Origin: Dictyostelium discoideum
Lineage: Eukaryota
Assembly (NCBI GenBank): GCA_000004695.1
Contig: CM000150.2
Coordinates: forward strand, 1,824,001-1,888,000
DNA: 64,000 nt
Reading direction: 5' to 3'
Positions 8,660-63,000 of the stretch are shown in pieces. Within the stretch, counting starts at the first letter, position 1; every line of letters starts with the position of its first letter. A program made the position numbers and the translations under genes. The notes under the pieces were generated by a model, which worked only from the letters and a program-made list of their open reading frames with translations, did not search any database and had not been told where the DNA came from.

Positions 8660-8713
<54 letters not shown>

Positions 8714-9749: not shown

Positions 9750-9782
<33 letters not shown>

Positions 9783-10439: not shown

Positions 10440-10490
<51 letters not shown>

Positions 10491-10587
10491 GAAAACTGGA
10501 AAACCAATTGATGTTGACTTTTTTTTTTTTTTTTCTAAATGGATGTTGGGTGTGTGTATTTTGGAAAATTTGATTTAAAATTCGGTT

Positions 10588-14131
<3,544 letters not shown>

Positions 14132-32000: not shown

Positions 32001-32295
32001 ACTAACACTTTGTAACCTTTTTTCACCAAAACTCCAACATTTTCAGGTGTCATTGATACTCTCTTTTCATTTTGATAAACTTCAGTTGGGATACCAATAG
32101 TTAATTGTTCAAATGGAATACCTTTTGCATCTTTTGTTAATTCTAATGCCATATCAATTGATGTTATTCCTTGATTCGGTGTTGTTGGTAATACACTTCC
32201 AGTTTGATCTTTTAATGTACTATAAAATAATCTATTTGTTACATTTCTTTTAATTGAAACTTTTTTTTTATTTTAGTTTTAATAAATAATTAATA

Positions 32296-39434: not shown

Positions 39435-39506
39435 GGCTCCATAGCATAGTGGTATTGCGCTTCCCTAGTAAGGAAGAGGTCATGAGTTCGATCCTCATTG
39501 GAGCCT
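39435..39506 (+). tRNA. tRNA-Thr (anticodon AGU). No intron.
   Basis: Acceptor stem GGCTCCA/TGGAGCC. D-arm GCAT-AGTGGTAT-TGCG. Anticodon stem CTTCC/GGAAG with loop CTAGTAA (anticodon AGT). T-arm ATGAG-TTCGATC-CTCAT. 72 nt plus discriminator T. Confidence 0.9.
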
Positions 39507-39535
39507 TTTAAAATTCGATCAGGAATAGACCAAAG

Positions 39536-39749
39536 GATCGATTCTCATGCATGGATTCTCATGCATGGATTCTCATGCATGGATTCTCATGCATGGATTC
39601 TCATGCATGGATTATCATGCATGGATTCTCATGCATGGATTCTCATGCATGGATTCTCATGCATGGATTATCATGCATGGATTCTCATGCATGGATTCTC
39701 ATGCATGGATTCTCATGCATGGATTCTCATGCATGGATTCTCATGTGCG
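39536..39749. repeat. Tandem minisatellite of ~14 copies of the 15-mer GGATTCTCATGCATG. Two copies carry a C>A variant (GGATTATCATGCATG). It begins 30 bp downstream of the tRNA-Thr.
   Basis: Read directly. Each unit contains the palindrome ATGCAT/CATGCATG. The three overlapping plus-strand ORFs 39498..39788 in the track are artefacts of this repeat. Confidence 0.9.
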
Positions 39750-39916
39750 ATTATTTTTATCAATTCACATCTAGAAAAACCTAAATGAAACTAAAAAAAA
39801 TGTTTGATGAACAGTAAAAAGACATTTTCTTTTTAATTTTTTTTTAATATTTACAATTGTTTTTTATTTTCTTATTATTTTTTTTTTTTTTTTTTTTTTT
39901 ATTTAAAATTTAATTA

Positions 39917-42296: not shown

Positions 42297-42476
42297 TTAC
42301 TCTTCACTAAAACTTAAAAATTCATCTTCTTCACTTAAACTATAATCATTATCTTCTAAAACAGTATTATCTTCACCCTCTTTATTTATTTTCTTGATTC
42401 TATTACATTCACTCTCACTATAATAATTTTCTTTGTCTTCATGCTCACCCTTGTCACCATCATCTTCATCATCATC

Positions 42477-42521
<45 letters not shown>

Positions 42522-45500
42522 TTCATCCTCGTCTTCGTCTTCGTCCTCATCTTCATCATCATATTCATCTTCAGAATCTGAATGAGGTTGAATTAATCCA
42601 TTTGGATTTAAATAGTCATATTCTTGAATTTGTTGTTCTAAAACACTGATACCTTTGGAATCAATTGAGACCATTGAGTTTATTGAATGAACATATTGAC
42701 AAAATGGACCCCAAGTTCTATCTTTTTTTAAGAGTTTAGAATTACCAATTACAAATAATCCAAATTTAGCTCTTGTGAGTGCGACATTAATACGTCTACG
42801 ATCAGAAAGGAAACCAATTCTTTCGCTTCTTACACACGATAAAATTATGATATCTTTTTCTGAACCTTGAAAACCATCAATTGTTGATGTTTCAATATTT
42901 AATGGATAATTAAACTGTTTATGTTGTTCTTTGATTTCACTCTTTTGTAATTTATATGGCGTAATAATACCAAATGAGAACTTTTTACATTCTGGATAAT
43001 CTTGAACTAACTTTTTAATCAATGTGAATACCATTGTGATTTCTAATTTATTCTTTAATGATCTTTTACCACTTTCTTCTTTTGAATCAATAACATCATA
43101 GAATCTAATTGGACCATATTTGATATCTGAATGGAAATTATGTTGATTGTATACTAATGACTTTACATTATCACCATCTAATAATCTGTCTCTATAGAAT
43201 TGATTTGATGGGAATCTTGAAATTGTTGGATGCATACGATATTGAACATGTAACATTTCAACTGGTAATACTTTTGATAATCTTTCGAATAATGATATAT
43301 TTAAACCATTTTCTGCACTTTCTGTAGAGAAGATAGTTGGTGGTAATTGTAATGGATCACCAACGAGAATTAACTTTTCAATATTACCAATACATAATGG
43401 AATTATTGATGATGGTTCAGTTGATTGAGTTGATTCATCTACTAATATAATATCTGCTCTAAAGTTGTTCTTAACAGTTTCAGAACCACTTCCAGATAGA
43501 GTTGAGAAAACAATGGATGCTCTATAGATACTATCAGATTTCTCACGTTGAGTTTTATTGAAAATTGAAATACTATGACAATCTGGTGATATATTTTCCT
43601 TTTTACCAATACGTACCATATTTGGTAAATAAGGTTTACCATCTAAACCTATTAATTTCTTTTTTGAACATCTCTTTGCAATTTCATCTACTGATGCATG
43701 TGATGGACCACATACTAATATCTTGAATTCTGGATTAATTGCTAATAAAATTGAAAGTAAATAATAAATTGTTGTAGTTTTACCAGTACCTGGTGGACCT
43801 TGAATTAATGTAATACCTTTTGTTGATAATGATGTTTCAATTGAATTAAATTGTGATGTATTCAATTCTTGAATACACATGGATCTCAACAATGATGGAA
43901 TAGCCATTCTCTTTGAGGATAGTATATCGTGGTCTTTTCTTGATGGTTGTAAAATTTGATCAAATAGTATTCCAGAATTTCTAAAATCTTTTATTGCATT
44001 CAACTCTCTAATGAATGTAATGCAATTTGAAACTTTTATAAAGTATAACTTTTCTTTTATAGTATTGGAATCTTTCAAATAGTTTTTATGATTGAATGAA
44101 ATTGAATCAAACATTTCTATTATAGGATCCATTGAATCTGATGAATGAAATTTACATTTTACAATTTGTGTATTCTCTTCTAAATCAACATTTGAACAAT
44201 TGAGTACTAAACCCATTGCAAACATTGGTTCATTGGTATTATCAAATACTTTAAAAAGTAAAACATCATTATAAAATAATTCTTGGGACCCATCATTTAC
44301 ATCAATTTCAAACTTCATAATTGAATAGTCGGATATCTCTTTAAATGAGTGAATTGTTGGTCCATCAATCATCTTAATTTTATCTAAACCTATTAATGTA
44401 CCATCTTTTTCTGATATTGAAACACCTTCAATTTCATCAAATTCACCTGCAAGTTGTTTCCTATATTCCTCCACTATCAAAGGTTTCATTAAATCCATAT
44501 ATTCTTCATGATTTGAGTAACTTGATTTCAAATTTCTAATACTATTCACCTGTATTAATGGAATTCTTTCTGGACTAATCTTTAAAAATATTGATAATAT
44601 TTCGTAAGGACTCTTTAAAAAAACACTAACTAATTCACGAATTAATACAATTTTTAAAAAATTTTCATTATTATTATAATTGTTTTTATTATTATTATTA
44701 TTAAATTTATTATTTGATTTGGTTGTTGTTGTTGTAGTAGTTGTTGGTGTTGTTGTTGGTGTTGGAGTTGGTGTTGATGATGAGTTTATTAAAACCTTTT
44801 CATTTTTAATTAATTGATAAATTTCATTAAATAACAATTTTGAAATTAAGGTTAACCTTTCAGAGTTTAATAATTTAAAAGTTGGAATTTTAATAGCGGA
44901 ACGATTAATTTTTGTTTTAGATTTAAATTTTTTGATAAAACCATCAGAGAATTTACCTCTAATTAAATCTAAAAAGTTTAATTTAGTTTCATTATTTCTC
45001 TCTAATTCTAATTTCAATTGATCTGAATTTATGGGTCTAAAAGTTTTTGTTTTTTCTTTTAACTCTGAAATTTGTGAGAAATGGTTGAATTCTATCATTA
45101 CCATTAATGATAATGATTTTTGATAAATTGAATCAATATTTTCAGTATTTATATTATTTCTTTGAACCATTGAAATATCGTGTATTAATCTAATTTTTAA
45201 AACTTGAATATGCATATTAAATTGATTTTTGTTCTCATCAATTATTTTCTTTACTTGTTCTAATGATGGTTGATAAGATGGATTCAATTTTGATAATGTA
45301 TCCAATTTTCTAAAAATTAAATCTGCACTATTTGAATCTTCAAATATTAAATTTAATAAACTACGTTTCAATGGTTGGTTTATATCAAAAGTGGATGAAC
45401 CACTTTGAGGTGTTGTTGTTGTATGAGTGGTTGCGGTTGTGGTGGTTGTGGTAGGTGAAAGTGAATCTGGTTCAATCACTGATTTAGTTGAGGCAATTTT

Positions 45501-47103
45501 TTGTGGTATTTGTTTTATTGTTGGTTGGGCCTCGTTTGGTTTACCTGGATTTATTGGAGCTGGTAATGACGGTAAAGTTGTTGTTGTAGGAGTGGTTGTG
45601 GTTGTGGTTGTAGTTGTGGTTGTGGTTGTGGTTGTGGTAGGAGAAAGTGAATCCGGTTCAATCACTGATTTAGTTGAGGCAATTGTTTGTGGTATTTGTT
45701 TTATTGTTGGTTGGGCCTCATTTGGTTTACCTGGATTTATTGGAGCTGATAATGATGGTAAACTTGTTGTTGTTGTTGTTGTTGTCGGAGTGGTTGTGGT
45801 GGTGGGTCTTATTGAAGTTGTTGTGTTTGTGGTGGTTATGGTAGGTGAAAGTGAATCGGATCCAATCACTGATTTAGTTGAGGCAACTGTTTGTGGTATT
45901 TGTTTTATTGTTGGCTTGGCTTCATTTGATCTACCTTGATTTATTGGAGCTGAGAATAATGGTAAACTTGTTGCTGTCGTCGACGTTGTTGTTGTTGTTG
46001 TTGTTTTTGTTGTTTTTGGTGCATTTGAATAGATAGTATACTTTTCTGATAAAGATTTTCCTTTTCCTATTAGCTTCATACATTTTTCAAATGATTCACA
46101 AATTTTGATAAAATTTGAATCAATTAAACCATCTAAATACTCTGTAAATCTTAAATCATTGATACGATAATTTTTATTCTTTAAAACTGTTCTAAATTCA
46201 ATTAATTCTTTTTTTAATTTACTTGGAAAAATACATTTTTCAATATCTAAAAACGATATTGGCATTTCAAATTGTACAGAAGTTTCTATTTCAATTCTAC
46301 CTCTAATTTTTTGTATTCTATTTGATGTTAATCTTTTAAAAAAAAAACTAAACTCGATTAAAAAATTTAAATTACTATAATCACTATATAATTGATATAT
46401 ATTTCTTTTAATTATATCATCTTCATCTTCATCTTCACCTTCATCTTCATCTTCATCTTCATCTTTATTATTATTATTATTATTATAATATAATAAATCA
46501 TTTCTTTGAAAAAATGTAGGAAATTTAGAAGAGACATGAATTGAAGCTGTATATTTGACATTGTTGATTTTACGTAATAAAAAGAATTTTGATGAGGATT
46601 TAAGTAATACTTCTTGAATTTTACTTTGAAAAGTTGGAAAATAATTTTCAATATCCTCTAAACTATCTATTAATATTGATGAGTTTATAGTTTCAGTGGT
46701 AATTTGAGGTGTTGGTGATAAATTAATTGTTTCATTTAATTGAGTTAATAATACTCCAAGTTTTGGGTAAAGTGATTTTATATAATTTGAAACTGTTTGA
46801 TTTGGAAGAGGCAATGAGAAATCTGGAATCATATATGATTCTGTTTTATTTGTAGGAGTGAAAATATATGGTTTTGAAATTAAATTTGGATCAAAAGTAC
46901 CAATTTTTTTAAATTTTATTGAAATTCCACTTGATTTTAAATGATTTTTAAAGTCATTTATAGAATTTTTTTTTGAACTTTTTGTTTGTGAAAAATGATT
47001 CTTTAATAAATGTATTTGATAATGTACATTAAATTTTATAATGGTTTGAAATTTGATAAATTTATTAAAAAAATCACTTGATAAAATTAAATGCTCACTA
47101 ACT

Positions 47104-47198
<95 letters not shown>

Positions 47199-47670
47199 TA
47201 AAAAATTATTCTTTATTTCTTTTAATAATTTTTTTTTTAATTTTTCAATCAGAGTAGTAAAAAAATCATCTTCCAAAGCTTCAATTATAAATTCTAGTTG
47301 ATCTACACATGTTGGAAATTGGACTTTTAATTGTTTAATTGTTTCTAATTGTTTTTTGGGGTTATTACATTCTTTAAATATTAATTTTATTAGATTATTA
47401 TTATTATTATCATCATTATTATCATCATTATTATTATTATTATTATTACTATTATTATTACTATTATTATTATTGTTATTATTATTATTAATGGTATTTG
47501 TCGATGATAATTCAGATTGCGTTGGATTTATTAATGACAAAGAAGGTGACAGATTTTTGCTTTCACTAGAAAAATTAAATGAGAGTTAGAAAAATGGCAA
47601 AAAAAAAAAAAAAAAAAAAAAAATATCTAATATCAATATTTTACTCTTCTGTTTTTAAAATAGAACCCAT
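42297..47670 (-). CDS. Copy 1 of a tandem paralogous family: a large UPF1/MOV10-like SF1 helicase protein. The CDS is join(47645..47670, 42297..47565). It has an Asn-rich N-terminus, the shared N-terminal module, 3 x ~57-aa Thr/Pro-rich tandem repeats, a C-terminal helicase core and an acidic poly-Asp/Glu tail. It has NO nucleotidyltransferase domain.
   Basis: Helicase motifs were read directly: GPPGTGKT (I), VCGPSHASVDE (Ia), LVDESTQ (II), VGDPLQLPPT (III), YRMHP (IV), DGFQGSEKDIIILSCVRS (V), VALTRAKFGLFVIG (VI). The short first exon ATGGGTTCTATTTTAAAAACAGAAGA|GTAAAAT and the acceptor TTTTCTAG| at 47566-47567 restore the frame (MGSILKTED-ESKNLSPSLSLINPTQ...). The TTG 'start' at 47540 in the ORF track is internal. 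Confidence 0.75.
45430..45950. repeat. Three tandem copies of a ~175-bp coding repeat inside helicase copy 1. They encode SLPSLSAPINPGKPNEAQPTIKQIPQTIASTKSVIEPDSLSPT + poly-Thr.
   Basis: Near-identical peptide and DNA repeats were read in the 42297..47540 ORF. They are mirrored in the antisense ORF 45427..45939. Confidence 0.8.
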
Positions 47671-48332
47671 ATTTTTTTTTGTGTAGGTGATAATAAAAAA
47701 AAAAAAAAAAAAAAAAAAAATTAAAAAACAATACAATAATATATCCAATTATATACAATTATATATACAATGGTTTTATTTGTTGTGTTGAATTTTTAAA
47801 ATAAAAAATAAAAAAATTTTCAAATACGAATCAAAATTTGGGTTTTAAAAAAAAGAAAATTCAAAAAAAAAAAAAAAAAATCAAAAAAAATTAAATTAAA
47901 AATCCGATTAAGTACGATTTAAAATAAAAAAAAAAAAAATAAATAATAAAATGAAATAATATAAAAAAAAATAATAAAATAAAATTATAAAAAAGAAAAA
48001 ATTTGTATCATTTATTTTAAAATAAAAGAATAAAAAAAATTAATTTAAAACTTTACTTTTTTTTTTTTTTATTACTAAAATAAATGGACAATTTAAAAAA
48101 AAAAAAAAAAATAAAAAAAATTTTAAAAAATGGAAAAATTTTGATTTGTCGTCCCCAAAAAAAAATCAAAGAGAAAAAGAAAAAAAAATAAAAAAAAAAA
48201 AAATTTGGTTATTTTTTTTTATTTTTTTTTTTTTTATATAAATAGATATTTTCAATTGTGTTTATAAAAAAAGAGTTAAAATGAGTTTAGGGACATTAGT
48301 TTTAAAAAAAAAAAACGTAGGTAAAATTGGTG

Positions 48333-48690
48333 GATTTAATGACTGAAGGAAATGAATTACCATATTAACTAAACAGAATGAACTAAATGTTTTCTCTGCT
48401 GCATTATTTAAATCTTTTGAGATTGCCCACCATTTTACTAATAATGCTAAATCTATACATCTATTATCAATTGAACAATATTCACCTAACAATAATGAAT
48501 TGTGATAACTAATCATTGAATTAAAACACATATCGAAATGAATACCTGATGATATCTCTTTGAATCTAATGATTGGTATTTTTGCATCCATTCTTTTTTC
48601 AATTAATTTATATTGTTGAGATCTATTTAAGTATTTATAAACTTGTTTTAAATAAGTTGTATCTTCCTTTTGAATACATGAAAATATATC
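48333..48690 (-). pseudogene. Pseudogene fragment. It is a partial copy of the nucleotidyltransferase/PAP-associated region of copies 2 and 3 (KQVYKYLNRSQ.YKLIEKR..AKIPIIRFKEISSGIHFDMCFNSM.SYHNSLLLGEYCSIDNRCIDLALLVKWWAISKDLNNAAEKTFSSFCLVNMVIHFLQSLNPPILP). Homology ends abruptly at both ends.
   Basis: The nucleotide and protein sequence is near-identical to 49853..50215 of copy 2. Homology breaks at 48332. Downstream the ORF runs into unrelated sequence (…TFFFFKTNVPKLILTLFL*). Confidence 0.8.
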
Positions 48691-48840
48691 ACCAGATTGT
48701 CATCGTATATCTCTTTTTGATAAAACACTAGCACAAAGAAAAGAAATTCTTAAGAATGCAAATATTGTTTTCTCAACATTATCAGCAAGTGGTTCTGGTC
48801 CTGTTAGAAGTAACTTTAAAGCAAATATTGTACATGCACA
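48691..48840 (+). pseudogene. Pseudogene fragment in INVERTED (plus) orientation. It is a partial copy of the helicase motif Ia-II region (CHRISLFDKTPAQRKEILRNANIVFSTLSASGSGPVRSNFKANIV). It abuts the NTase fragment.
   Basis: The plus-strand translation matches the minus-strand-encoded copy 2/3 sequence CHRISPYDKTPAQRKEIIRNANIVFSTLSASGSGSVRSNFKANIV. The junction with the NTase fragment at ~48690 is direct. Confidence 0.75.
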
Positions 48841-49354
48841 AGTACAAGTTTAACAGGTTCATCAGATTTAACAGGTTTAACTGGTACAGGTAAAGGTTTT
48901 TACAGGTTTAGCAGATTCAGGTAAAGGTTGTCAGGAAGATTATAAATCTACCTATGCACTATGACATTAGGAGTGGTTTAATATTTTTTAATACTTAGAC
49001 AATAATAACAATAAAAAAACAAAAAAAAATTTTATTTTTATTTCTTAAAAAAGTAAACAAAATAAATAAAATAGAAATTTTGCCTATTGCAATAGTAAAG
49101 ATACAATTTTTAAAAATTTAAAATCGAAGTCATAATTTAATAAATAAAAATAAAAATAAAATTATTTGTTTTTTTAAATAATTCCCATGGAATTTAGATT
49201 TTGCCTTAAGAAATCTATCCGTAAATATTTTTACAAGATTAAAAAAAAAAAAAAAATTCAAATTTACTTGTCCTTTTATTTATTTTAATTTAAACAAAAA
49301 AAAAAAAAAAATGGTTTGGGTATTATTTTTTAATTTTTTTTTTTTTGTAAAACT

Positions 49355-52300
49355 CTAAGAAAGTAATCCATTTGACGATAATGATAAATTCTCTTTGAAT
49401 AAATCATTAATTGTTGTTTTGGTTGATCTTAAAGAATATTCCATCATTGTGAATTCCATTAATACTCTTTGGTATGTTTTTTTAATTGATGATGCTAAAT
49501 TTCTATCATTAATAAATGGATCAAGTACAATGATATGACCTTTTACTGGTGTACCCTTTATAGTTGATCTTTTTAATAATGCTCCATTTTCACATAAACT
49601 ACCACCACCACTTGAGTGACTAATTGATATGATATTCTCTTTATAATTAAATGTTGAATAATAATAAAAGAATTGATAAAACAATTGAGCGATTGTCAAT
49701 TTGTTTCTTTTTGGTTCAAATTTGTTAAAACTTGACCAATCATAATATTTAACTAAATAATTTTCTACGATTGTTTGTGATTTTAATTTAATTAAATTTC
49801 TATCTGTTGAATACTTTTCTAATAGTTGATTTGATGTTGTTTGTAAATTTGGTAAAATTGGTGGATTTAATGACTGAAGGAAATGAATTACCATATTAAC
49901 TAAACAGAATGAACTAAATGTTTTCTCTGCTGCATTATTTAAATCTTTTGAAACTGCCCACCATTTTACTAATAATGCTAAATCTCTACATCTTTTATCA
50001 ATTGAACAATATTCACCTAACAATAATGAATTGTGATAACTCATCATAGAATGAAAGCACATATCGAAATGAATACCTGATGATATCTCTTTGAATCTAA
50101 TGATTGGTACTTTTGCACTAATTCTTTTTTCAATTAATTTATATAGTTGAGATCTATTTAAATATTTATAAACTTGTTTTAAATGAGTTGTATCTTCTTT
50201 TTGAGTACTTGAGAAATTAATATCTAAATCACTATCATTCAATGATAATCCACTCAAGAATGAACCATATAAATTAATTGATGCTGTTGCGAAACCTTCT
50301 GATATTAATTTCTTTAATCTATTATAACTATCTTGTTTAATTGATTTCTTTTTACATTCAATTTTTGAAATAATTTCATTAAGAGAATTATTTGTTTTTG
50401 ATGATGATAAAGATTGTGAAATTTCTTGTATTTCTAAATTATTTAAAACTTTCTTTAAATATGAATCCAAGAGACGTGAATATTTAACAAAACTATCTCT
50501 TAATGTTTTCTTTTTTGATAAAGTTGATTGATCTATTTTTTCTTGATTTGATTTTTGTAATTCTATAATAATATTAATAAGAGTGTTTGGAAAATCTTTA
50601 TCAATGATTAAATTATTTGAATCTGGTGAAACTGTCTCATCTTCATCATCATCATCGCTGATACTATAATATTCATCATCATCATCATCCAAATCATCAT
50701 TATCTTCACCTTCTTGATTAATTTTCTTGATTCTATTACTTTCATCATCTTCATCATGCTCTTGTATTTCTTCATTATCTTCATCTTCGTCTTCCTCTTC
50801 ATCTTTACCATCATATTCATCTTCAGAATCTGAATGGAATTCAATTAATCCATTTGGATTTAAAGAGTCATATTCTTGAATTTGTTGTTCTAAAACACTG
50901 ATACCTTTAGAATCAATTGAGACCATTGAGTTTATTGAATGAACATATTGACAAAATGGACCCCAAGTTCTATCTTTTTTTAAGAGTTTAGAATTACCAA
51001 TTACAAATAATCCAAATTTAGCTCTTGTGAGTGCGACATTAATACGTCTACGATCAGAAAGGAAACCAATTCTTTCACTTCTTACACATGATAAAATTAT
51101 AATATCTTTTTCTGAGCCTTGAACCCCATCAATTGTTGATGTTTCAATATTTAATGGATAATTAAACTGTTTATGTTGTTCTTTGATTTCACTCTTTTGT
51201 AATTTATATGGCGTAATAATACCAAATGAGAACTTTTTACATTCTGGATAATCTTGAACTAACTTTTTAATCAATGTGAATACCATTGTGATTTCTAATT
51301 TATTCTTTAATGATCTTTTACCACTTTCTTCTTTTGAATCAATAACATCATAGAATCTAATTGGACCATATTTGATATCAGAATGGAAATTATGTTGATT
51401 GTATACTAATGACTTTACATTATCACCATCTAATAATCTGTCTTTATAGAATTGATTTGATGGGAATCTTGAAATTGTTGGATGCATACGATATTGTGTA
51501 TTTAACATTTCAACTGGTAATACTTTTGATAATCTTTCAAATAATGATATATTTAAACCATTTTCTGCACTTCCTGATGAGAAAATAGTTGGTGGTAATT
51601 GTAATGGATCACCAACAAGAATTAACTTTTCAATATTACCAATACATAATGGAATTAGTGAAGCTGGTTCAGATGATTGAGTTGATTCATCTACTAATAC
51701 AATATTTGCTTTAAAGTTACTTCTAACAGAACCAGAACCACTTGCTGAAAGAGTTGAGAAAACAATATTTGCATTTCTAATAATTTCTTTTCTTTGTGCT
51801 GGTGTTTTGTCATAGGGTGATATACGATGACAATCTGGTGATATATTTTGAAGTTTACCAATACGTACCATATTTGGTAAATAAGGTTTACCATCTACAT
51901 TTATTAAACTCTTTTTTAAACATCTCTTTGCAACTTCATCTACTGATGCATGTGATGGACCACATACTAATATCTTGAATTTTGGATTAATTGCTAATAA
52001 AATTGAAAGTAAATAATAAATTGTTGTAGTTTTACCAGTACCTGGTGGACCTTGAATTAATGTAATACCTTTTTTTGATAATGATGTTTCAATTGCATTA
52101 AATTGTGATGCATTCAATTCTTGAATACAAATGGATCTTAACAATGATGGAATCTCCATTCTCATTGATGTCATTAAATTATAAACTTCCAATGATGGTT
52201 GTAAAATTTGATTTAAAAGTGTTTTTGAATTTTTAAACTCTTCTGTTGCTTCTAATTCTCTAATGAATGTAGTACTATTAGAAACCTTTATAAAATGTAA

Positions 52301-55300
52301 AATATCTTTTGAATATCTTTTCGAATTCAATGAAACTGAATAAAACTTTTCAATTAATGGTTTCGTTGAATCCGATAATACAAATTCGCAAATTATTTTT
52401 TGTTTTTTACTTTTTAATTCTGAAGATCTTGTAACTAAACTCAATGCAAACATTGGTTTATTTGTATGATCAAATGCTTTAAAAAGTAAAATATCATTAA
52501 GGTATATTTCCTCTAATTCATCCTTAACTTTAATATTAAATGTAATTTCAACAGAATCCTCCGACAACTCTTGGAATGAATGAATTGTTGGTGTATCATT
52601 CATTTTAACTCTATCTAAACCTATTAATGTACCATCTTGTTCTGATATTGAAATACCTTCAATTTCATCAAAATCACCTTCGAGTTGTGCTCTATATTCT
52701 TCTACTATTAAAGGTTTCATTAAATTTACAAATTCTGATTGGTCAGAATAACTATCTTGTAATGAATGAATATTATCAGCTTGAATTAATGGAATTCTTT
52801 CTGGATTACTCTTTAAAAATATTGACAATATCTCTTCAGAATCTTTTGAAATTACTTCAACATGATCACGAACTAAAACAACTTTTCTATTATTATTATT
52901 GTTATTTCTTGATCTTATTGTAGTTGTTGCAGTTGCTGTTCCTGTTGGGGATTTGATAAACAACTTTTCACTTTTAATTAATTGGTGAATTTCATTAAAT
53001 TGTAACTTTGAAATTAAACCTAACTTTTCAGAGTTTAATAATTTAAAAGATGGAATCTTTAAAGTTGAACCATTGATTTTTGTTGTTGATTCAAAGTTAC
53101 TGACGAGATTATCAAAGAATTTACCTTTAACTATATTTGAAAATTCTAACTTCGTTCTATTTTTTTTTGCTAATTCTGAATTCAACTGATTGTATTTGTG
53201 TCTACAAGTCTTTGTTTTTTCTTTTAATTCTGAATACTGTGAGAAATGATTAAACTCTAATAATACCATTAATGATAATGACTTGTTATATATTTTTTCA
53301 ATATTTTGATTGCTTGTATTATTTTTTTGAATCTTTGAAATATCTGTTTTTAATCTATTTTTAATAGCATTAATAGTTGAATTAAATTGAGTTATACTCT
53401 CATTGATAATATCATTCACTTGTTCAATTGATTTTTTCTTTGATGGATATGATTTAAATAATCTATCCAATGTTTTAATAATTGAATCTGCACTAGTTGA
53501 ATCTTCAAATATTAATTTCAATAAACTATGTTTCAATGATTGGTTTATATCAAATGTAGTAGTAGCAGCACTAGTATTATTAGAAGCAGATGATGCTGTA
53601 GTTGATTTATCTGTTGATGTTGTTGCAGAGGTATTTGCAGTGGTTGAGGTTGTTGTTGTTGTTGTTTTTGTTGTAGCTTTATCTTTTATAATACTAGTGG
53701 TAGTTGAAGCTGTAGGTGTTTTTGAACTTGTTGTATTAGATATTTTTTGTGAATTTGAAAGTGATAAATCTTTATAATCTAATACTAAAGATTTTATATG
53801 AATTATAAAAGATTTTATTAAAGTTCCAATTGTATTATCACTTTCATTTTTATGACCAAGTGGTAATTTAAATAATTCTACATTCATCACATATTCAGTT
53901 TTTTTAGATTTAATATTTAATTTTACTTGTTCTGGAATATAGTTTGAAATGTCTATTGATTTTTGATCAATAAATGCTTCAACTTTAATACAAAATCTTT
54001 GGTGGTGAGTATTCAATAAATTGAATGCCTCTGATCTAGAATCCAAAAAGGTTGGTGAGTTTTTAACTGTGAAATTTTTATCAAAATATTCTTTAATATA
54101 ATTTCTTTGCACTAAATTACTAAATTCAATTAATGAAATGATTGTAAAAATTGTTTCATTAATTTCATTAAATTTTGATGGATTTACACTTGATTTTAAT
54201 AATTTTCTTATATCTTTTGATGTACCAATTCTATAAGATTCAGTCTTTTTTTTGAATGGTAAAACTATGTCTTTTACCATTGATTTAATTGAATCTATTT
54301 GTAAATTAAATGTTGGATATTGATTCTTTAAACTATCAATTGCTTCTGGTTTGTTAAAAAATGTATTAAATAATGAAAATATTTGTTTTTCAATATTTGA
54401 TGGTGTCTTCAAAATTACTGTTGGTATATTTGATAATAATTCTTTTGGTGTTGATGTTGGTGTTGGTGTTGGTGTTGGTGTTGGTGTTGGTGTTGGTGTT
54501 GGTGTTGGTGTTGGTGTTGGTGTTGGTGTTGGTGTTGGAGTTGGAGTTGGAGTTGGAGTTGGTGTTGGTGTTGGTGTTGGTGTTGGTGTTAGTGTTGGTA
54601 TTGGTTGTGTTGTTGTTGTTGAGTTTGATAAAAGTTGATAATCTAAAATTAAAGATTTTATATAAATCAAATGTGATTCGATTAATGTTCCAATGGTATT
54701 ACTTTCGATATTCTTGTGACCAAGTTCTAATTTAAATAAACCAATATTAAATAAAACTTTTTTAGAATCTAATTCTAACTTCAATGGTTTTGGAACAAAT
54801 TTTGAAACAAAAGATGGATTTTGACTAATAAATTCCTCTAGATTGATTTTTGATTTTTGATATTGAGTTTCCAATAAACCAAAAGCCTCTAATTGTAAAC
54901 TTGCTTGGTGTGTGATTTTGACTATATTTTTTTCAATATATTTTTTAACACTACTTCTTTGGATTAGATTACTCAACTCTATTAATGAAATGATTGTAAC
55001 AAATATTGTTACAATTTCATCAAACTTTTTTGAATTTATCTTTGAATTCAATGATTTTTTAAGTTGATTTAATGTTGTAATTTTCACTGAATCAATATTG
55101 GTTTGACTTTCTTTTATAAAAGTTTCAACTGATAATAATTCTGATTTAAAACCTGGGTATTTTTTAATCAAACCTTGAATATCTTCTGATCTGTGGAATA
55201 ATTTATTAAAAATTGAAAAAACTACGATTTCAGTAGTTGTTGGTTTTGTTTGTTGTTGGCTATTTATAACTTTTGATACCAATGATGGTGATGTTGCTAA

Positions 55301-56273
55301 TGGTACTGTTGGTGGTGATACAGTTGTTGTTGTTGTTGCTAATGACACTGCTGGTGGTGTTATATCAATAACTGATGTAGATGATATTTTCTGTTCTATT
55401 GTAGTTGTACCTAAACATTTATTATATAATTTACAAAGGTTGATAAAGTTTGATTGAATTGAAATTGATATATCTTGAGAATCTGAAAATTTTAAATAAT
55501 TTATTTTATAATTTTTACCCTTTAAAATAAATTTGAAATCATTTGAAATTTGACGAAATTTTGATGGATAATTACATTTGAAAACCTCTGATAATGTTAT
55601 TGTTATATTTTGAGCTGACAATTGATCATAAAGCCTTTGTTTTTGATCAGCTGTGATTGATGTATCATCTGTAAATAATTTCTTTAAAATTAATCTTTGA
55701 TATAAAAAACTAAATTCAATCATAATTTTCAATGCTATAAAATCATTATAAATTTGAAAAATATCGTTATTATTATTATTACGATTGATATTATTTAATA
55801 AATTTGTTTTTTTAACTAATTTACTAAATTTATCAGAGACATCTATTGAAGAAGATGTTTTAATAATTCCAATTTTATTCTCTAAAGAAGTTTTATCATT
55901 TTCTAAAATTTCTTTAATTTTCTTAATATCGAAATTTGGAAATAATTTACAAACACCATTAATTCCATTTATGATATCTTTTAAATTACTATGCTTGAAT
56001 ATAGTTTTAAAAATATCATTTTCATTACTATTTATAATTTGTGAATTTTCAGTAATATTCAATTTGTTCATATTATTTATTATTGAATCCATTGTACTAT
56101 TGGTGTTAGTGTTGGTAGTGGTAGTGGTACTGGTGGTGGTAGTGGTACTGGTGGTGCTCGATTCTACAGTTGTTTTTGTTTTTTCTGGTACGCTTTGAGA
56201 AATTGGATTGTTATTATTTGATGAAGGTGGTGGTGGTGGTGGTGGTGAAGTTGATGAATTTGGAATATTTTCC

Positions 56274-56310
<37 letters not shown>

Positions 56311-56413
56311 AATGGGAATTAGGAAAACAGGTATAACATAGAATTTTAAAATTTTATGAATTGAATTTTATAATATTAATATTTTACCCTTCTGTTTCTA
56401 AAGAAGAACTCAT
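49355..56413 (-). CDS. Copy 2. It is a fusion of an UPF1/MOV10-like SF1 helicase with a C-terminal Cid1/Gld2-type terminal nucleotidyltransferase (Pol-beta NTase + PAP-associated domain). The CDS is join(56388..56413, 49355..56273). Four tandem ~200-aa N-terminal modules are separated by low-complexity linkers, including a (PT)24 linker.
   Basis: The helicase motifs are those of copy 1. After an acidic linker the same ORF continues into ...INLYGSFLSGLSLNDSDLDINF... (the hG[GS]-x10-DhDh NTase signature). It then has ...KVPIIRFKEISSGIHFDMCF... (third catalytic Asp). It ends with ...RCRDLALLVKWWAVSKDLNNAAEKTFSSFCLVNMVIHFLQSLNPPILP... (PAP/OAS1-associated core). The first exon ATGAGTTCTTCTTTAGAAACAGAAGG|GTAAAAT and the acceptor (T)nAG at 56274-56275 keep the frame (MSSSLETEG-ENIPNSSTSPPPPPPP...). 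Confidence 0.75.
54446..54600. repeat. (GGTGTT)n hexanucleotide microsatellite, (TGGTGT)~25. On the minus strand it encodes the (PT)n linker of copy 2.
   Basis: Read directly. The equivalent position in copy 3 (62140-62270) is a degenerate GGTGTTGGTGTTGATGTT... array encoding TSTPTPTS.... Confidence 0.9.
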
Positions 56414-57041
56414 TTACAATTGTTGATTATTTTTTTTTTTTTCTTTAATTTTTTTTTTTTTTTTTTTTTTGGATCTTTGTTTTTTTTTTTTTTTTCTATT
56501 TTTTTTTTTTGAGAAAATGAGAAATTAGGTTTAAAAAAAAAAAAAAAAAATTTGTCAAATTTAAATTCCCGTAAAATTTTTTTTTTTTTTTTTTTTTTTT
56601 CACGAAAAAAAAGGGAAATTTAAATTTGAATCAAAAAACCATTTTTTTTTTTTTTTTCATTTTATTTTTTTTTATTTTTTTTTACCAAAATGATTTAAAC
56701 TTATTTATTTTTAATTTAAATTTGGTTTAGATAAATAGAACACAAAAATACACAAAATTATATAAAAAATAAAAAAAATGAATGTAGTCATCCCATTTTA
56801 TTTTTTTTTTTTTTTTTTTTTTTAATATTTTTATAAATCACCAGAAATTCAAAATATCTCTCGCTTTTATAAAATCAAAAAACTATGGGTAATTAATTTA
56901 AAAAAATTGGATATCTCCAAAGTAAAAAAAAAAAAAAAAATACAAATTTACTTGTCCTTTTTATTTATTTTAATTTAAACAAAAAAAAAAAAAAATGGTT
57001 TGGGTATTATTTTTTAATTTTTTTTTTTTTTTAAAAAAACT

Positions 57042-60000
57042 TTAAGAAAGTAATCCATTTGACGATAATGATAAATTCTCTTTGAATAAATCATTAATTG
57101 TTGATTTGGTTGATCTTAAAGAATATTCCATCATTATGAATTCCATTAATACTCTTTGGTATGTTTTTTTAATTGATGATGCTAAATTTCTATCATTAAT
57201 AAATGGATCAAGTACAATGATATGGTCTCTTACAGCTCTACTCCTTATATTTGATCTTTTTAATAATGCTCCATTTTCACATAAACTACCACCACCACTT
57301 GAGTGACTAATTGATATGATATTCTCTTTATAATTAAATGTTGAATAATAATAAAAGAATTGATAAAACAATTGAGCGATTGTCAATTTGTTTCTTTTTG
57401 GTTCAAATTTGTTAAAACTTGACCAATCATAATATTTAACTAAATAATTTTCTACGATTGTTTGTGATTTTAATTTAATTAAATTTCTATTTGTTGAATA
57501 CTTTTCTAAGAGTTGATTTGATGTTGTTTGTAAATTTGGTAAAATTGGTGGATTTAATGATTGAAGGAAATGGATTACCATATTAACTAAACAGAATGAA
57601 CTAAATGTTTTCTCTGCTGCATTATTTAAATCTTTTGAAACTGCCCACCATTTTACTAATAATACTAAATCTCTACTTCTATTATCGATTGAACAATATT
57701 CGCCTAACAATAATGAATTGTGATAACTCATCATTGAATTAAAACACATATCGAAATGAACACCTGATGATATCTCTTTGAATCTAATGATAGGTACTTT
57801 TGCATCCGTTCTTTTTTCAATTAATTTATATAGTTGAGATCTATTTAAATATTTATAAACTTGTTTTAAATGAGTTGTATCTTCTTTTTGAGTACTTGAG
57901 AAATTAATATCTAAATCACTATCATTCAATGATAATCCACTCAAGAATGAACCATATAAATTAATTGATGCTGTTGCGAAACCTTCTGATATTAATTTCT
58001 TTAATCTATTATAACTATCTTGTTTAATTGATTTCTTTTTACATTCAATTTTTGAAATAATTTCATTAAGAGATTTATTTATATTTGATGAGGATGATGA
58101 TAAAGATTGTGAAATTTCTTGTATTTCTAAATTATTTAAAACTTTCTTTAAATATGGATCCAAGAAACGTGAGTGTTTTATAAAATTATCTCTTAATTTT
58201 TTCTTTTTTGATAAAGTTGATTGATCTATTTTTTCTTGATTTGATTTTTGTAATTCTATAATAATATTAATGAGAGCATTTGGAAAATCTTTATCAATGA
58301 CTAAATTATTTGTATCAAATACTTCTTCATCTTCATCATACTCTTCGCTGATACTATGATATTCTTCATCACCATGCTCATTATCATCATCATCATCATC
58401 CTCCAAATCATCATTATCTTCACCTTCTTGATTAATTTTCTTGATTCTATTACTTTCATCATCTTCATCATGCTCTTGTATTTCTTCATTATCTTCATCT
58501 TCGTCTTCCTCTTCATCTTCACTATCATCATAGTCATCTTCAGAATCTGAATGGAATTCAATTAATCCATTTGGATTTAAAGAGTCATATTCTTGAATTT
58601 GTTGTTCTAAAACACTGATACCTTTAGAATCAATTGAGACCATTGAGTTTATTGAATGAACATATTGGCAAAATGGACCCCAAGTTCTATCTTTTTTTAA
58701 GAGTTTAGAATTACCAATTACAAATAATCCAAATTTAGCTCTTGTGAGTGCGACATTAATACGTCTACGATCAGAAAGGAAACCAATTCTTTCGCTTCTT
58801 ACACACGATAAAATTATGATATCTTTTTCTGAACCTTGAACTCCATCAATTGTTGATGTTTCAATATTTAATGGATAGTTAAACTGTTTATGTTGTTCTT
58901 TGATTTCACTCTTTTGTAATTTGTATGGTGTAATAATACCAAATGAGAACTTTTTACATTCTGGATAATCTTGAACTAACTTTTTAATCAATGTAAATAC
59001 CATTGTGATTTCTAATTTATTCTTTAATGATCTTTTACCACTTTCTTCTTTTGAATCAATAACATCATAGAATCTAATTGGACCATATTTGATATCTGAA
59101 TGGAAATTATGTTGATTGTATACTAATGACTTTACATTATCACCATCTAATAATCTGTCTTTATAGAATTGATTTGATGGGAATCTTGAAATTGTTGGAT
59201 GCATACGATATTGTGTATTTAACATTTCAACAGGTAATACTTTTGATAATCTTTCAAATAATGATATATTTAAACCATTTTTTGCACTTTCTGATGAGAA
59301 AATAGTTGGTGGTAATTGTAATGGATCACCAACAAGAATTAACTTTTCAATATTACCAATACATAATGGAATTAGTGAAGCTGGTTCAGATGATTGAGTT
59401 GATTCATCTACTAATACAATATTTGCTTTAAAGTTACTTCTTATTGGTTTAGAACCACTTGCTGATAGAGTTGCGAAAATAATAGTTGCATTTCTAATAA
59501 TTGCTTTTCTTTGTGCTGGTGTTTTATCAAAAAGTGATATACGATGACAATCTGGTGATATATTTTGAAGTTTACCAATACGTACCATATTTGGTAAATA
59601 AGGTTTACCATCTATATTAACTAAACTCTTTTTCAAACATCTCTTTGCAACTTCATCTACTGATGCATGTGATGGACCACATACTAATATCTTGAATTTT
59701 GGGTTAATTGCTAATAAAATTGAAAGTAAATAATAAATTGTTGTAGTTTTACCAGTACCTGGTGGACCTTGAATTAATGTAATACCTTTTGTTGATAATG
59801 ATGTTTCAACTGCACTAAATTGTGATGTATTCAATTCTTGAATACACATGGATCTCAACAATGATGGAATCTCCATTCTCATTGATGTCATTAAATTATA
59901 AACTTCCAATGATGGTTGTAAAATTTGATTTAAAAGTGTTTTTGAATTTTTAAATATTTCCGGTGCTTCTAATTCTCTAATAAATGTAGTACTATTAGAA

Positions 60001-63000
60001 ACCTTTATAAAATGTAAAATATCTTTTGAAGTTTTCGAATTCAACGAAACTGAATAAAACTTTTCAATTAATGGTTTCGTTGAATCCGATAATACAAATT
60101 CGCAAATAATTATTTGTTTTTTACCCTTTAAAACTGAATTTGATGTTACTAACCCCAATGCAAACATTGGTTTACTAGTATGATCAAATGTTTTAAAAAG
60201 TAAAATATCATTAAGGTATATTTCCTCTAATTCATCCTTAACCTTAATATTAAATTTAATTGCAACCAAATCCTCTGACAACTCTCGGAATGAATGAATT
60301 GTTGGTGTATCATTCATCTTAACTCTATCTAAACCTATTAATGTACCATCTTGCTCTGAAATTGAAACACCTTCAATTTCATTAAAATCACCTTCGAGTT
60401 GTGCTCTATATTCTTCTACTATTAAAGGTTTCATTAAATTTACAAATTCTGATTGGTCAGAATAACTATCTTGTAATGAATGAATATTATCAGCTTGAAT
60501 TAATGGAATTCTTTCTGGACTACTCTTTAAAAATATTGATAATATCTCTTCAGAATCTTTTGAAATTACTTCAACATGATCACGAACTAAAACAACTTTT
60601 CCATTATTATTATTATTATTATTACTATTATTGTTATTTCTTGATCTTATTGTAGTTGTTCCTGTTGAGGAGTTGACAAACAACTTTTCACTTTTAATTA
60701 ATTGATAAATTTCATTAAATTGTAACTTTGAAATTAAACCTAACTTTTCAGAATTTAATAATTTAAAAGATGGAATCTTTAAAGTTGAACCATTGATTTT
60801 TGTTGTTGATTCAAAGTTACTGACGAGATTATCAAAGAATTTACCTTTAACTATATCTGAAAATTCTAATTTCATTTTATTATTTTTTGCTAATTCTGAA
60901 TTCAATTGATTGAGGTATTGTCTACAAGTCTTTGTTTTTTCTCTTAATTCTGAATACTGTGAGAAATGATTAAACTCTAATAATACCATTAATGATAATG
61001 ACTTGTTATATATTTTTTCAATATTTTGATTGCTTGTATTATTTTTTTGAATCTTTGAAAAATCTGTTTTTAATCTATGTTTAATACCATTAATATTTGT
61101 ATTAAATTGAATTTTACTCTCATTGATTATATTCCTAACTTGTTTAATTGATTCTTTGTTATAAGGATGTGATTGTGATAATCTATCCAATGTTTTAATA
61201 ATTGAATCTGCACTATTAGAATCTTCAAATATTAATTTCAATAAACTATGTTTCAATGAATGGTCATTCTCAAATGTTGTAGTAGTATTATTATTAGAAC
61301 TAGGTGATGGTACTATTGATATTTGTGATGTTGTTGTTGGTGATGGTGCTGTTGTTGTAGCTTTATCTTTTATAATACTAATGGTAGCTGAAGCTGTGGG
61401 TGTTGTTGAACTTGTTGTATTAGATATTTTTTGTGAATTTGAAAGTGATAAATCTTTATAATCCAACACTAAAGATTTTATATAAATAATAAAAGATTTT
61501 ATTAAAGTTCCAATTGTATTATCACTTTGATTTTTATGACCAAGTGGTAATTTAAATAACTCTACATTCATCGTATATTCAGTTTTTTTAGATTTAGATT
61601 TAATATTTAATTCTACTTGTTCTGGAATATAGTTTAAAATATCTATTGATTTTTGATCAATAAATGCTTCAACTTTAATACAAAATCTTTGGTGGTGAAT
61701 ATTCAATAAATTGAATGCCTCTAATTTAAAATTCAAAATATCTTGTGAGTTTTCAACTGTGAAATTTTTATCAAAATATTCTTTAATATAATTTCTTTGA
61801 GAAAGATTACTAAATTCAATTAATGAAATGATTGTAAAAATTGTTTCATTAATTTCATTAAACTTTGATGGATTTACACTTGATATTAATAATTCCTGTA
61901 CAGCTTTTGATGTATTGTTTTTATGAAATTCAATCTTTCTTTTGAATAATGAAATTATATCCTTAGTCGCTGATTTAATTAAACCAATTTGTAAATTAAA
62001 TGCTGGATATTGATTCTTTAAACTATCAATTTCCTCTGGTTTATTAAAAAATGTATTAAATAATGAAAATATTTGTTTTTCAATATTTGATGGTTTCTTC
62101 AAAATTACTGTTGGTATATTTGATAATAACTCTTTTGGTGTTGTTGGTGTTGGTGTTGGTATTGGTGTTGGTGTTGGTGTTGATGTTGGTGTTGGAGTTG
62201 GAGTTGATGTTGGTGTTGGTGTTGATGTTGGTGTTGGTGTTGATGTTGACGTTGGAGTTGTGATTGTTGGTGGTGGTACTGGTACTGGTACTGGTTTTAT
62301 TTCTGTTGGTGATGCTGTTGTTGTAGTTGTTGAGTCTGATAAAAGTTGATAATCTAAAATTAAAGATTTTATATAAATCAAATGTGATCCGATTAATTGT
62401 CCAATGGTATTACTATCGTTATTTTTGTGACCAATTTGTAATTTAAATAAATCAATGTTAAATAAAACTTTTTCAGATTTTAATTCTAATTTCGATGGTA
62501 CTGGAACGAAATCTAAAACATTAGATGATATAGTTTGACTAATGAGTTTTTCTAAATCAATTTTTAAACTTTGATGTTGAATTTCTAATAAATTGAAAAG
62601 CGATGGATGTATTCTCTTTGGATTGGGTAAATGTTTTTTAAGAGTAATTCTTTGGTAAAGATTACTAAACTCTATTAATAAAACGATAGTAACTAGTGTA
62701 GTTTTAATTTCTTCAAATTTTATAAAGTTAATCTTTGAATCCAATGATTTTTTAAGTTGATTTAATGTTGTAATTTTCACTGAATCTATGATACTTTGAA
62801 ATGATGTTTGGTTTTCTTTTATAATTGTTTCAACTGATAATAATTCAAATTCAAAGATTGAGTGTTTTTTAATCAAATCTTGAATACCTTCTAATTTGTA
62901 GAAAATTTTATAAAAAATTGAAAAAACTATGATTTCAGTAGTTGTTGGTTCCATTGTGAATATTGTTGATGATGATGATGATTCCACTGTTGGTGATTTT

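Follow-up and report, generated by a model that had tools for sequence, protein, structure and literature searches.

Probable interlocus gene conversion of two helicase-core patches in a tandem array of Sen1/Upf1-like genes of Dictyostelium discoideum

Interlocus gene conversion between tandem paralogues is known from the human fetal globin genes HBG1 and HBG2, from RHD and RHCE, and from the red and green opsins. Partnerships of a helicase with a tailing enzyme are also well known, such as those of Mtr4 with Trf4 (TRAMP) and of Hrr1 with Cid12 (fission-yeast RDRC). MOV10 acts with TUT4/7 on LINE-1 mRNA, helicase and tailing enzymes being present there in trans (PMC6191937). The window analysed here, a stretch of 64,000 nucleotides of D. 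discoideum DNA, contains from 42.3 to 64 kb three head-to-tail genes on the minus strand, c1, c2 and c3 (Table 1), whose units are spaced 7.7-8.3 kb apart and whose reading frames stay open across 5-7 kb although stop codons are frequent in this genome. The predicted c2 product comprises the orphan helical modules M1-M4 and a pre-helicase region, followed by the SF1B helicase and, across an acidic linker, a C-terminal nucleotidyltransferase of Cid1/TUT type; c3 has the same architecture, without a premature stop in its in-window reading frame. The c1 product consists of N-terminal modules, P/T-rich linkers, a Sen1/Upf1-like SF1B helicase and, at its end, an acidic tail, and we detected neither a PAP/TUT Pfam match in it nor any trace of a nucleotidyltransferase domain downstream of c1.

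Table 1. Features of the array, in positions of the window
Feature	Position	Strand	Remarks
c1	42297..47670	(-)	ORF; exon 1 and intron read from sequence (predicted gene model)
c1 CDS, exon 1	47670-47645		begins with ATG
c1 intron	47644-47566		79 nt, GT..AG (predicted gene model)
c1 CDS, remainder	47565-42297
c2	49355..56092	(-)	2245 aa; ORF, Pfam and PDB matches
c2 modules M1-M4	52868-56062		four mutually homologous orphan modules, ~220 aa each
c2 nucleotidyltransferase	about 49505-50380
c3	57042..64000	(-)	ORF, Pfam; N-terminus beyond window end
c3 nucleotidyltransferase	about 57192-58079
Tract A in c1	43601..43907	(-)	307 bp; P-loop/motif I-Ia of RecA1
Tract A in c2	51853-52159	(-)	counterpart of c1 tract A
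Tract A in c3	59570-59876	(-)	counterpart of c1 tract A
Unconverted island in c1	43443..43600	(-)	158 bp, between tracts A and B
Island counterparts	c2 51695-51852, c3 59412-59569	(-)	70-71% nt identity, c1 vs c2/c3
Tract B in c1	42593..43442	(-)	850 bp; helicase motif II through RecA2 lobe
Tract B in c2	50845-51694	(-)	counterpart of c1 tract B
Tract B in c3	58562-59411	(-)	counterpart of c1 tract B
c2 tandem duplication unit	49240..56922	(-)	~7.7 kb; self-BLAST and flank alignment
Homologue of c2 unit	56923 to past 64000		5' boundary of c3 unit outside window
Relic piece 1	48319..48690	(-)	c2/c3-type nucleotidyltransferase fragment (c2 aa 1964-2081)
Relic piece 2	48681..48832	(+)	inverted c2/c3-type island copy (c2 51849-51698)

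All three products match the Pfam families AAA_11 and AAA_12 (E values 1e-42 to 1e-60, in c1 1e-45 to 1e-60), and their helicases match Sen1 and Upf1 in the PDB (5mzn and 2xzo; 1e-68 and 3e-62). Walker A (GPPGTGKT), motif II (DESTQ) and the Arg-rich motif VI (RRRINVALTRAK) are recognisable in the alignments, and with their full motif set the array helicases belong by sequence to the Upf1-like SF1B group, with a predicted 5'-3' polarity. A Pfam search found neither SEN1_N (PF12726) nor the Upf1 CH domain in the array proteins, and the position of the prong (subdomain 1C), with Sen1 as comparison (PMC5452015), spans about 13 residues versus about 40 in the crystallised Sen1 construct. Because PF12726 is absent and the prong position reduced, we regard these genes as Sen1-like in their motor but not as Sen1 orthologues. 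The nucleotidyltransferases of c2 and c3 match PF22600 (E 6e-19 and 2.5e-20, respectively) and PF03828 (~3e-8), as well as TUT4 (6e-34), TUT7 (3e-27), URT1 (about 2e-25) and Cid1 (about 3e-20). Both conserve the catalytic residues GS...DxD...D, with 'YGSFLSGL..DSDLDI..FDM' aligning with the TUT4 catalytic domain, and are by sequence Cid1/TUTase-type terminal nucleotidyltransferases (MTPAP-like palm plus PAP-associated domain), a class to which c1 does not belong. At the position of the His in the URT1 DPFETSH motif (DPF-x3-H), presumably the residue for UTP selectivity, c2 and c3 carry Arg and Heterostelium Gln/Asn, while His is kept in Cavenderia and in the two Acytostelium copies; judged by this residue, c2 and c3 would lie outside the uridylyl-specific subtype. 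The N-terminal modules gave no match to a known fold or family and evolve fast (c2-c3 dN/dS 0.58-0.80). Full-length matches in an exhaustive search came only from dictyostelids, to which the family is apparently restricted. P0004, a separate Sen1-like protein among the database matches, carries SEN1_N. Judged from their domains and from motif integrity in the sequence, the array proteins are most plausibly 'unwind-and-tail' enzymes of RNA surveillance or silencing.

Divergence along the three copies is strongly non-uniform, and the uniform divergence that a previous sequence-only reading of this DNA had named as evidence against a mosaic was not seen. Tract B corresponds to the stretch that this reading had described as almost base-for-base identical, and near-identity indeed holds there at 97-98%, not 100%: 42600-43450 is 97.0% identical both to 50860-51700 and to 58560-59400, and the latter two are 98.3% identical to each other. 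Synonymous divergence (dS by NG86/JC, approximate at the genome GC3 of ~0.1) between c1 and c2/c3 amounts to 0.53-0.58 in the pre-helicase region and 0.37-0.53 in the tail. Silent sites place all three copies at about the same distance from one another inside the tracts (dS 0.02-0.08), with 0.078 for c1-c2, 0.085 for c1-c3 and 0.072 for c2-c3 in tract B, and 0.022, 0.052 and 0.060, respectively, in tract A, where nucleotide identity is 94-96%. In the island that separates them, dS between c1 and c2/c3 is again 0.53-0.59 (0.59 for c1-c2, with a dN of 0.34), a value derived from just 53 codons. Both tracts are thus internal in c1, with divergent sequence flanking them on either side. By alignment to Sen1 (PMC5452015), the island would encode the strongly reduced prong position together with the stretch leading to motif II.

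The relationship between c2 and c3 is of a different kind, their dS being 0.06-0.16 throughout. Self-BLAST aligns 49240-55344 with 56923-63052 at 90.3% over 6.2 kb and also pairs 55283-56070 with 63177-64000. The likeness of their 3' part and flank, already noticed from the letters, was recovered at 96.3% (49262-50900 vs 56941-58600); it appears to stem mostly from a young duplication of the whole unit, because identity is 87% even in the N-terminal half (with 362 gap columns) and 92% in the non-coding flank, where homology stops about 115-130 bp beyond the stop codon. Extra homogeneity of their catalytic parts is only mild (3.4% silent differences vs 6.6%, P=0.006). The divergence of N-terminal halves, whose role in target recognition is putative, had likewise been reported and is most extreme for c1, which is essentially unalignable with c2/c3 upstream of M4 (nucleotide identity 0.3-0.6, dS and dN both ~0.9). 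With this N-terminus and a background dS of ~0.55 to c2/c3, c1, which lacks the nucleotidyltransferase, is in all likelihood an older paralogue.

Upstream of c1 lies a rearranged pseudogene relic (48319-48832), whose two pieces are joined via 4-7 bp of microhomology. Piece 1 precedes the start of c1 by about 650 bp, has the orientation of the genes and lies outside any ORF; it has 94% nucleotide identity to c2 49851-50224 (91.5% at the amino-acid level); piece 2 is 91% identical to c2 and 89% to c3, and its ends match the island boundaries to within about 4 bp. The relic had been overlooked in the sequence-only reading, as had tract A, the 158-bp island and the missing nucleotidyltransferase of c1. 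Elsewhere in the family we noted a permuted paralogue in D. cf. discoideum (NTase-M4-helicase) and stand-alone nucleotidyltransferase genes or relics that sit between copies.

We consider it very probable that two helicase-core patches underwent interlocus gene conversion among c1 and the c2/c3 lineage, a process that recurred in Heterostelium. Conversion or unequal crossing-over had both been proposed from the sequence; for c1 we retain the former and reject a single unequal crossover, because the c1 patches are internal and interrupted, with at least four breakpoints. That c1 could instead be a chimera, in which unequal crossing-over or partial duplication attached a young helicase segment on the 3' side to an old 5' half without patch-wise conversion, is very improbable: unequal exchange does occur in tandem arrays, c2/c3 resemble a unit duplication, and the rearranged relics and the permuted paralogue show that such events happen in this family, but one exchange leaves one breakpoint whereas at least four switches are needed here, the young sequence having old sequence on both sides and the old 158-bp island within it, and the tail 3' of tract B being old again.

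The tandem pair of Heterostelium album displays this mosaic too, island included, its boundaries lying within about 10 codons of those in D. discoideum. Its dS is 1.13 in the pre-helicase region, 0.26 in tract A, 0.75 in the island, 0.29 in tract B and 0.27 in the nucleotidyltransferase (permutation P=2e-4, Fisher P=1.3e-7). Two other pairs, which belong to the same family and have the same domains, act as negative controls: in Acytostelium, silent identity is equal in the homologous 'tracts' and in the flanks (P=0.83), and the Polysphondylium violaceum pair is uniformly divergent, with no mosaic. Paralogues cluster by species in every segment and no cross-species a/b orthology was detected, a grouping that would fit ancient paralogy with long-term concerted evolution or repeated lineage-specific duplication.

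Statistical tests point in the same direction. Silent-codon differences are clustered in the c1-c2 and c1-c3 comparisons (permutation P<=1e-4) and strongly contrasted between tracts and flanks (Fisher P~2e-14 for both), while neither clustering nor contrast is significant for c2-c3 under the same tests. The number of sites at which c1 is the odd copy, relative to those at which c2 or c3 is, passes from 299:72 in the flank to 27:23 in the tracts (4.2:1 to 1.2:1, P=9e-5), tract B contributing 17 c1-odd, 6 c2-odd and 7 c3-odd sites. Because this ratio shifts, the tracts differ in history and not in rate alone; what changes is the genealogy, rather than the rate of all branches together. Nor does codon bias account for the tracts, since GC3 has the same values within them as in the rest of the sequence (0.10-0.19), and no GC-bias signature of conversion is visible in their GC3. 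At all 9 of the 9 sites that can be polarised by the outgroup paralogue c4, the c1-specific amino-acid differences in the tracts are derived.

These data also make it very improbable that, without any conversion, stronger purifying selection on the helicase core (on the protein, possibly on codon usage) slowed its divergence. Such selection would agree with the very low dN of tract B (0.003-0.016, with a c2-c3 dN/dS of 0.04) and with the fact that the tract segments are the best conserved parts of the proteins across dictyostelids. Nevertheless, synonymous divergence drops 7-25 fold in the tracts at unchanged GC3, a rate effect would scale every branch alike instead of altering the branch ratio, and excess silent identity is missing from the Acytostelium and P. 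violaceum pairs, although they share these conserved domains. A non-coding function keeping the tracts identical (such as an RNA element within them, antisense transcription, or a target or source of small RNAs common to the copies) deserves equally little credence: nothing speaks positively for it, even in a putative RNA-silencing family, the array contains no Rfam match and no long antisense ORF, the homologous segments of Acytostelium and P. violaceum lack silent-site conservation, and constraint does not predict a change in branch ratio. The least probable explanation is an assembly artefact by collapse or cross-assembly of near-identical repeats since, difficult as AT-rich, repeat-rich genomes with units at such spacing are, copy-specific differences persist in each tract (1.7-6%), the long frames are intact, and Heterostelium, from an independent genome project, shows the same mosaic.

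According to the conversion model, tracts A and B would have passed by non-reciprocal copying from c1 to the c2/c3 lineage, or the other way, roughly when c2 and c3 split, a timing based on a small number of substitutions (1.5-14 silent differences per tract). Homologous recombination may have repaired a break in one copy with the neighbouring paralogue as template, heteroduplex or synthesis not reaching beyond the longest highly identical stretches. The island, a probable fast-evolving prong/1C remnant, would have stayed paralogue-specific either because heterology blocked or reversed conversion or because selection acted against converted variants. The homogenisation of catalytic parts suggested by the sequence-only reading would thus concern part of the helicase core, sparing the prong/1C island and not extending in c1 to a nucleotidyltransferase. 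The Heterostelium mosaic would have arisen independently and, because of this repetition, the mosaic seems a recurrent property of the gene architecture and not a one-off event.

A broader reading, which we rate as rather unlikely, sees in the array a genome-defence or RNA-silencing family that is specific to dictyostelids, turns over rapidly and owes its modular evolutionary regime to selection. Among tandem copies, the motor (tracts A and B, in Heterostelium also the nucleotidyltransferase) would then be homogenised repeatedly, and the specificity parts (the island at the prong position and the orphan N-terminal modules) would diversify or remain distinct between paralogues, much like clusters of immune receptors. 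The array would also spawn new architectures, such as the helicase-only c1, the permuted D. cf. discoideum paralogue and the stand-alone nucleotidyltransferases or relics.

Interlocus conversion thus gains in a social amoeba a clean, statistically well-supported patch-wise case with negative controls and an independent replicate. Its reproducible tract boundaries bear on what limits conversion tracts, whether heterology acts as a barrier or selection operates at an insert that evolves fast. Phylogenies of the helicase core are misleading, since c1 looks there as young as c2/c3 and much older elsewhere. For RNA biology, the array is of note because a Sen1/Upf1-like helicase is fused here to a TUT/Cid1-type tailing enzyme, an uncharacterised combination present in several tandem, fast-changing copies in a tractable model organism.

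Compared with known systems, the conversion mechanism is ordinary and well known, whereas the gene family is new and uncharacterised. As in textbook conversion, internal patches of near-identity of 0.3-0.9 kb, synonymous sites included, lie amid older divergence in adjacent copies of the same orientation, and they occupy the most conserved coding sequence while variable regions escape. Less ordinary is that, unlike in the textbook cases, both patches and the skipped island of the array recur in an independent species, Heterostelium. Two further differences from those cases are that c1 does not share the domain architecture of the copies that gave or received sequence, and that no GC-bias signature is visible. 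In contrast with Sen1 and Upf1, the array helicases are fused to orphan N-terminal modules and those of c2/c3 also to a nucleotidyltransferase, which, unlike Cid1, TUT4, TUT7 and URT1, forms the C-terminus of a helicase protein. The trans partnerships resemble the array in bringing a helicase (Upf1-like in MOV10 and Hrr1, SF2 in Mtr4) and a Cid1-family nucleotidyltransferase to the same RNA, but c2 and c3 hold both predicted activities in a single polypeptide, a 'Rosetta-stone' fusion.

Gene conversion is strongly supported as the origin of two low-divergence patches, tract A (307 bp) and tract B (850 bp), in the helicase region of c1, c2, and c3, three paralogues encoded by large minus-strand ORFs that follow one another head to tail from 42.3 kb to the end of the window. 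All three encode an Upf1-like SF1 helicase (Pfam AAA_11 and AAA_12, E-values of 1e-42 to 1e-60), whose closest solved structure is that of yeast Sen1 (1e-68), followed by Upf1 (3e-62). A Pfam search of the three copies places a Cid1/TUT-type nucleotidyltransferase (PF22600, PF19088, and PF03828) in c2 and c3 only; among solved structures it is closest to TUT4, TUT7, URT1, GLD-2, and Cid1 (6e-34 to 3e-20), and the structure-library alignments show that its G-S and DxD..D residues are kept. The C-terminal end of c1 is an acidic tail, and no transferase remnant was found 3′ of this copy. An Rfam search of the array returned no elements. Upstream of the helicase, c2 and c3 each possess four homologous modules of ~220 aa (M1–M4), of which c1 retains M4 and a relative of M1. 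Pfam gave no hit for these modules, a profile comparison did not connect them with the Cavenderia N-terminus, and a tblastn search of Heterostelium was likewise negative. The linker of c1 harbors three tandem repeats of ~200 bp present in this copy only (45426–46018, 83–87% identical), which encode P/T-rich units of the form '...SAPINPGKPNEAQPTIKQIPQ..ASTKSVIEPDSLSPTTTT'. The window is AT-rich (GC 0.14–0.36), and its STAT, FNIP-repeat, and transhydrogenase genes mark it as dictyostelid DNA. Directly after the tRNA-Thr(AGT) gene it contains ~42-bp tandem repeats (39498–39788) that translate into reiterations of 'MDSHAWILMHGFSC' whichever of the three forward frames is read.

Features of the window and of the comparison loci. 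Values of dS are for c1 versus c2/c3 and are approximate, the genome being AT-rich.
Feature	Location	Strand	Details
FNIP-repeat protein gene	333–1394		
Dictyostelium-type STAT gene	10769–14131		coiled coil, STATa Ig, and EF-hand_12
NAD(P) transhydrogenase gene	29006–32152		
Hemerythrin-domain ORF	34322–36328		internal tandem-repeat block 35526–36181, copies 80–85% identical
tRNA-Thr(AGT)	39435–39506		
c1 ORF	42297–47540	minus	ORF scan
c1 exon 1 and intron	ATG at 47670	minus	79-nt intron; gene model inferred from sequence
c1 pre-helicase (between modules and helicase)	45398–43907	minus	dS 0.53–0.58
c1 tract A	43907–43601	minus	dS 0.02–0.05
c1 island (between tracts)	43600–43443	minus	dS 0.53–0.59, dN 0.34
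c1 tract B	43442–42593	minus	dS 0.08; stretch singled out by the sequence-only reading
c1 tail			dS 0.37–0.53
Relic piece 1	48319–48690		between c1 and c2; c2/c3-type transferase fragment
Relic piece 2	48681–48832	inverted	152-bp copy of island
c2 ORF	49355–56092	minus	ORF scan
c3 ORF	57042 to beyond 64000	minus	leaves window end; without premature stop
c4, further paralogue (D. cf. discoideum, GCA_054859205.1, JBTAPH010000031.1)	L005 6819–11861		adjoins actin gene cluster
D. purpureum	L004 10001–17202		one 2271-aa gene with long N-terminal extension; no tandem partner within 10 kb
Heterostelium album	L001 5269–14982		tandem pair of helicase-transferase genes
P. violaceum	L006 4060–14778		two full helicase-transferase genes; transferase-only gene (8413–9696, 427 aa) between
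Acytostelium			tandem pair of helicase-transferase genes
Cavenderia			three helicase-transferase genes

Self-BLAST gives ~82% identity across 2.9 kb for c1 against either c2 or c3, and 90.3% across 6.2 kb for c2 against c3. The sequence-only reading had described nearly identical helicase cores (42600–43450, 50860–51700, and 58560–59400), a nearly identical 3′ part of c2 and c3 (49262–50900 and 56941–58600), and diverged N-terminal halves. This description is borne out: the cores share 97.0%, 97.0%, and 98.3% identity and the 3′ parts 96.3%; upstream of the last module, c1 is essentially unalignable with c2/c3, and c2 and c3 are 87% identical with many indels. Divergence along the paralogues is far from uniform, since on a codon-aware alignment of c1 with c2/c3, divided into five segments, approximate dS is 0.02–0.08 in the tracts against 0.53–0.59 beside them, the two tracts being separated by the divergent 158-bp island. 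Between c2 and c3, dS ranges from 0.06 to 0.16 across segments except in the tail, where we saw no silent differences. In permutations restricted to codons with the same encoded amino acid, silent-codon run lengths lie above all or nearly all permutations for c1–c2 and c1–c3 (P ≤ 1e-4) and show no significant clustering for c2–c3 (P = 0.46). Silent differences are also unevenly partitioned between tract and flank (Fisher P ~2e-14).

This arrangement, in which young sequence is flanked on both sides by old and broken by the island, requires at least four switches, which indicates gene conversion, in two separate tracts or in a single discontinuous one. Runs of 'c3-odd' and then 'c2-odd' sites in tract B might have recorded separate c1–c2 and c1–c3 exchanges after the split of c2 and c3, but they are non-significant (13 sites, 6 runs). 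Neither purifying selection nor codon bias can by itself account for the tracts, as shown by dS itself and by three further observations. First, GC3 is equal in tracts and flanks. Second, the ratio of c1-odd to c2/c3-odd sites changes from 299:72 in the flank to 27:23 in the tracts (P = 9e-5), a shift that implies a different history for the tracts because a mere slowdown would shorten every branch to a similar extent. Third, silent divergence in the Acytostelium and P. violaceum pairs is uniform despite protein conservation in the tract segments, so that these two species act as negative controls in which constraint alone does not yield a mosaic. No signature of GC-biased conversion was seen. 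A single unequal crossover is excluded for the c1 mosaic by the minimum of four breakpoints, so that, of the earlier proposal of 'gene conversion or unequal crossing-over', it is conversion that stands.

The likeness of c2 and c3 embraces the whole unit and ends ~130 bp beyond the stop codon, with 92% identity in that non-coding flank; the most plausible reading of these alignments is that a unit of ~7.7 kb was recently duplicated. The proportion of silent codon differences between them is 6.6% when modules, pre-helicase, and island are taken together and 3.4% in the catalytic parts (P = 0.006), a mild extra homogeneity that could, tentatively, reflect later conversion between c2 and c3. The dN/dS of this pair is 0.58–0.80 in modules M1–M4, 0.36 in the pre-helicase, 0.46 in the transferase, and 0.04 in the RecA2 lobe (tract B).

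The relic between c1 and c2 is a rearranged pseudogene whose two pieces are joined via 4–7 bp of microhomology, the ends of the second matching the island boundaries to ~4 bp. The transferase-only gene located between the P. violaceum copies resembles this relic. The further paralogue c4 possesses a continuous ORF (7961–9925) encoding, in order, a nucleotidyltransferase, a P/T linker, an M4-like module, and the pre-helicase; after this ORF comes a helicase (10206–11858) with an acidic tail at its end, and the whole is annotated as two genes. Its permuted domain order parallels that of the relic followed by c1, and c4 probably derives from a fusion across the junction between two tandem copies. 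It is an outgroup to c1–c3 and sides with c2/c3 at all polarisable sites (9/9) among the c1-specific amino-acid differences in the tracts; those changes therefore arose in c1, after conversion.

Full-length helicase-transferase matches were restricted to dictyostelids in an exhaustive HMMER search with a single sequence as query. In the Heterostelium pair, dS is 1.13 in the pre-helicase, 0.26 in A, 0.75 in the island, 0.29 in B, and 0.27 in the transferase (permutation P = 2e-4, Fisher P = 1.3e-7), the tract boundaries lie at most ~10 codons from those in the window, and the island is likewise unconverted. This second mosaic suggests that conversion has recurred in a separate lineage with reproducible boundaries. 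Paralogues cluster by species in every segment, and no cross-species orthology between 'a' and 'b' copies was found in any segment checked, a grouping compatible with both lineage-specific duplication and long-term concerted evolution. The D. purpureum gene is roughly equidistant from c1, c2, and c3 (about 52% amino-acid identity in tract B) and has no tandem partner within 10 kb, so that the three-copy array is younger than the D. purpureum split. Exact look-ups of c2 and a neighbouring ORF, in libraries that seem to lack proteins of the source genome itself, and a metagenome scan recovered no orthologous array in other isolates or species; word-indexed searches yielded one weak match to the nucleotidyltransferase query and none to the c1 M4/pre-helicase query. 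A literature search found nothing on the helicase-transferase family or its concerted evolution. Conversion is in itself an ordinary mechanism, and the added interest, which is moderate, lies in the recurrent tract/island architecture and in the uncharacterised fusion family.

The c2 residues at the island start align opposite the gap that holds the Sen1 'prong' (subdomain 1C, residues 1461–1554), which is needed for unwinding and termination and is a possible protein-interaction surface (PMC5452015). At this position the helicase-transferase family has a short, fast-evolving stretch, apparently what is left of the prong, whose dN is 0.24–0.36 in within-species pairs. We infer that the island was skipped either because heterology limits heteroduplex extension or because a paralogue-specific function is maintained.

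The combination of a Sen1/Upf1-like 5′-3′ motor with a TUT/Cid1-type tailing domain suggests a putative enzyme able to strip an RNA or move along it and to mark that RNA at its 3′ end. At the position of the His in the URT1 motif DPFETSH, c2 (49505–49560) and c3 have Arg instead, so that the preference may be for U or for A; this DPFxxxH position is occupied by His in Cavenderia and both Acytostelium copies and by Gln/Asn in Heterostelium. Judging from these residues, the family may have undergone a change of nucleotide specificity. In TRAMP and in fission-yeast RDRC, helicase and tailing activities cooperate in trans. The same cooperation in trans operates in the restriction of LINE-1 by MOV10 and TUT4/7 (PMC6191937).
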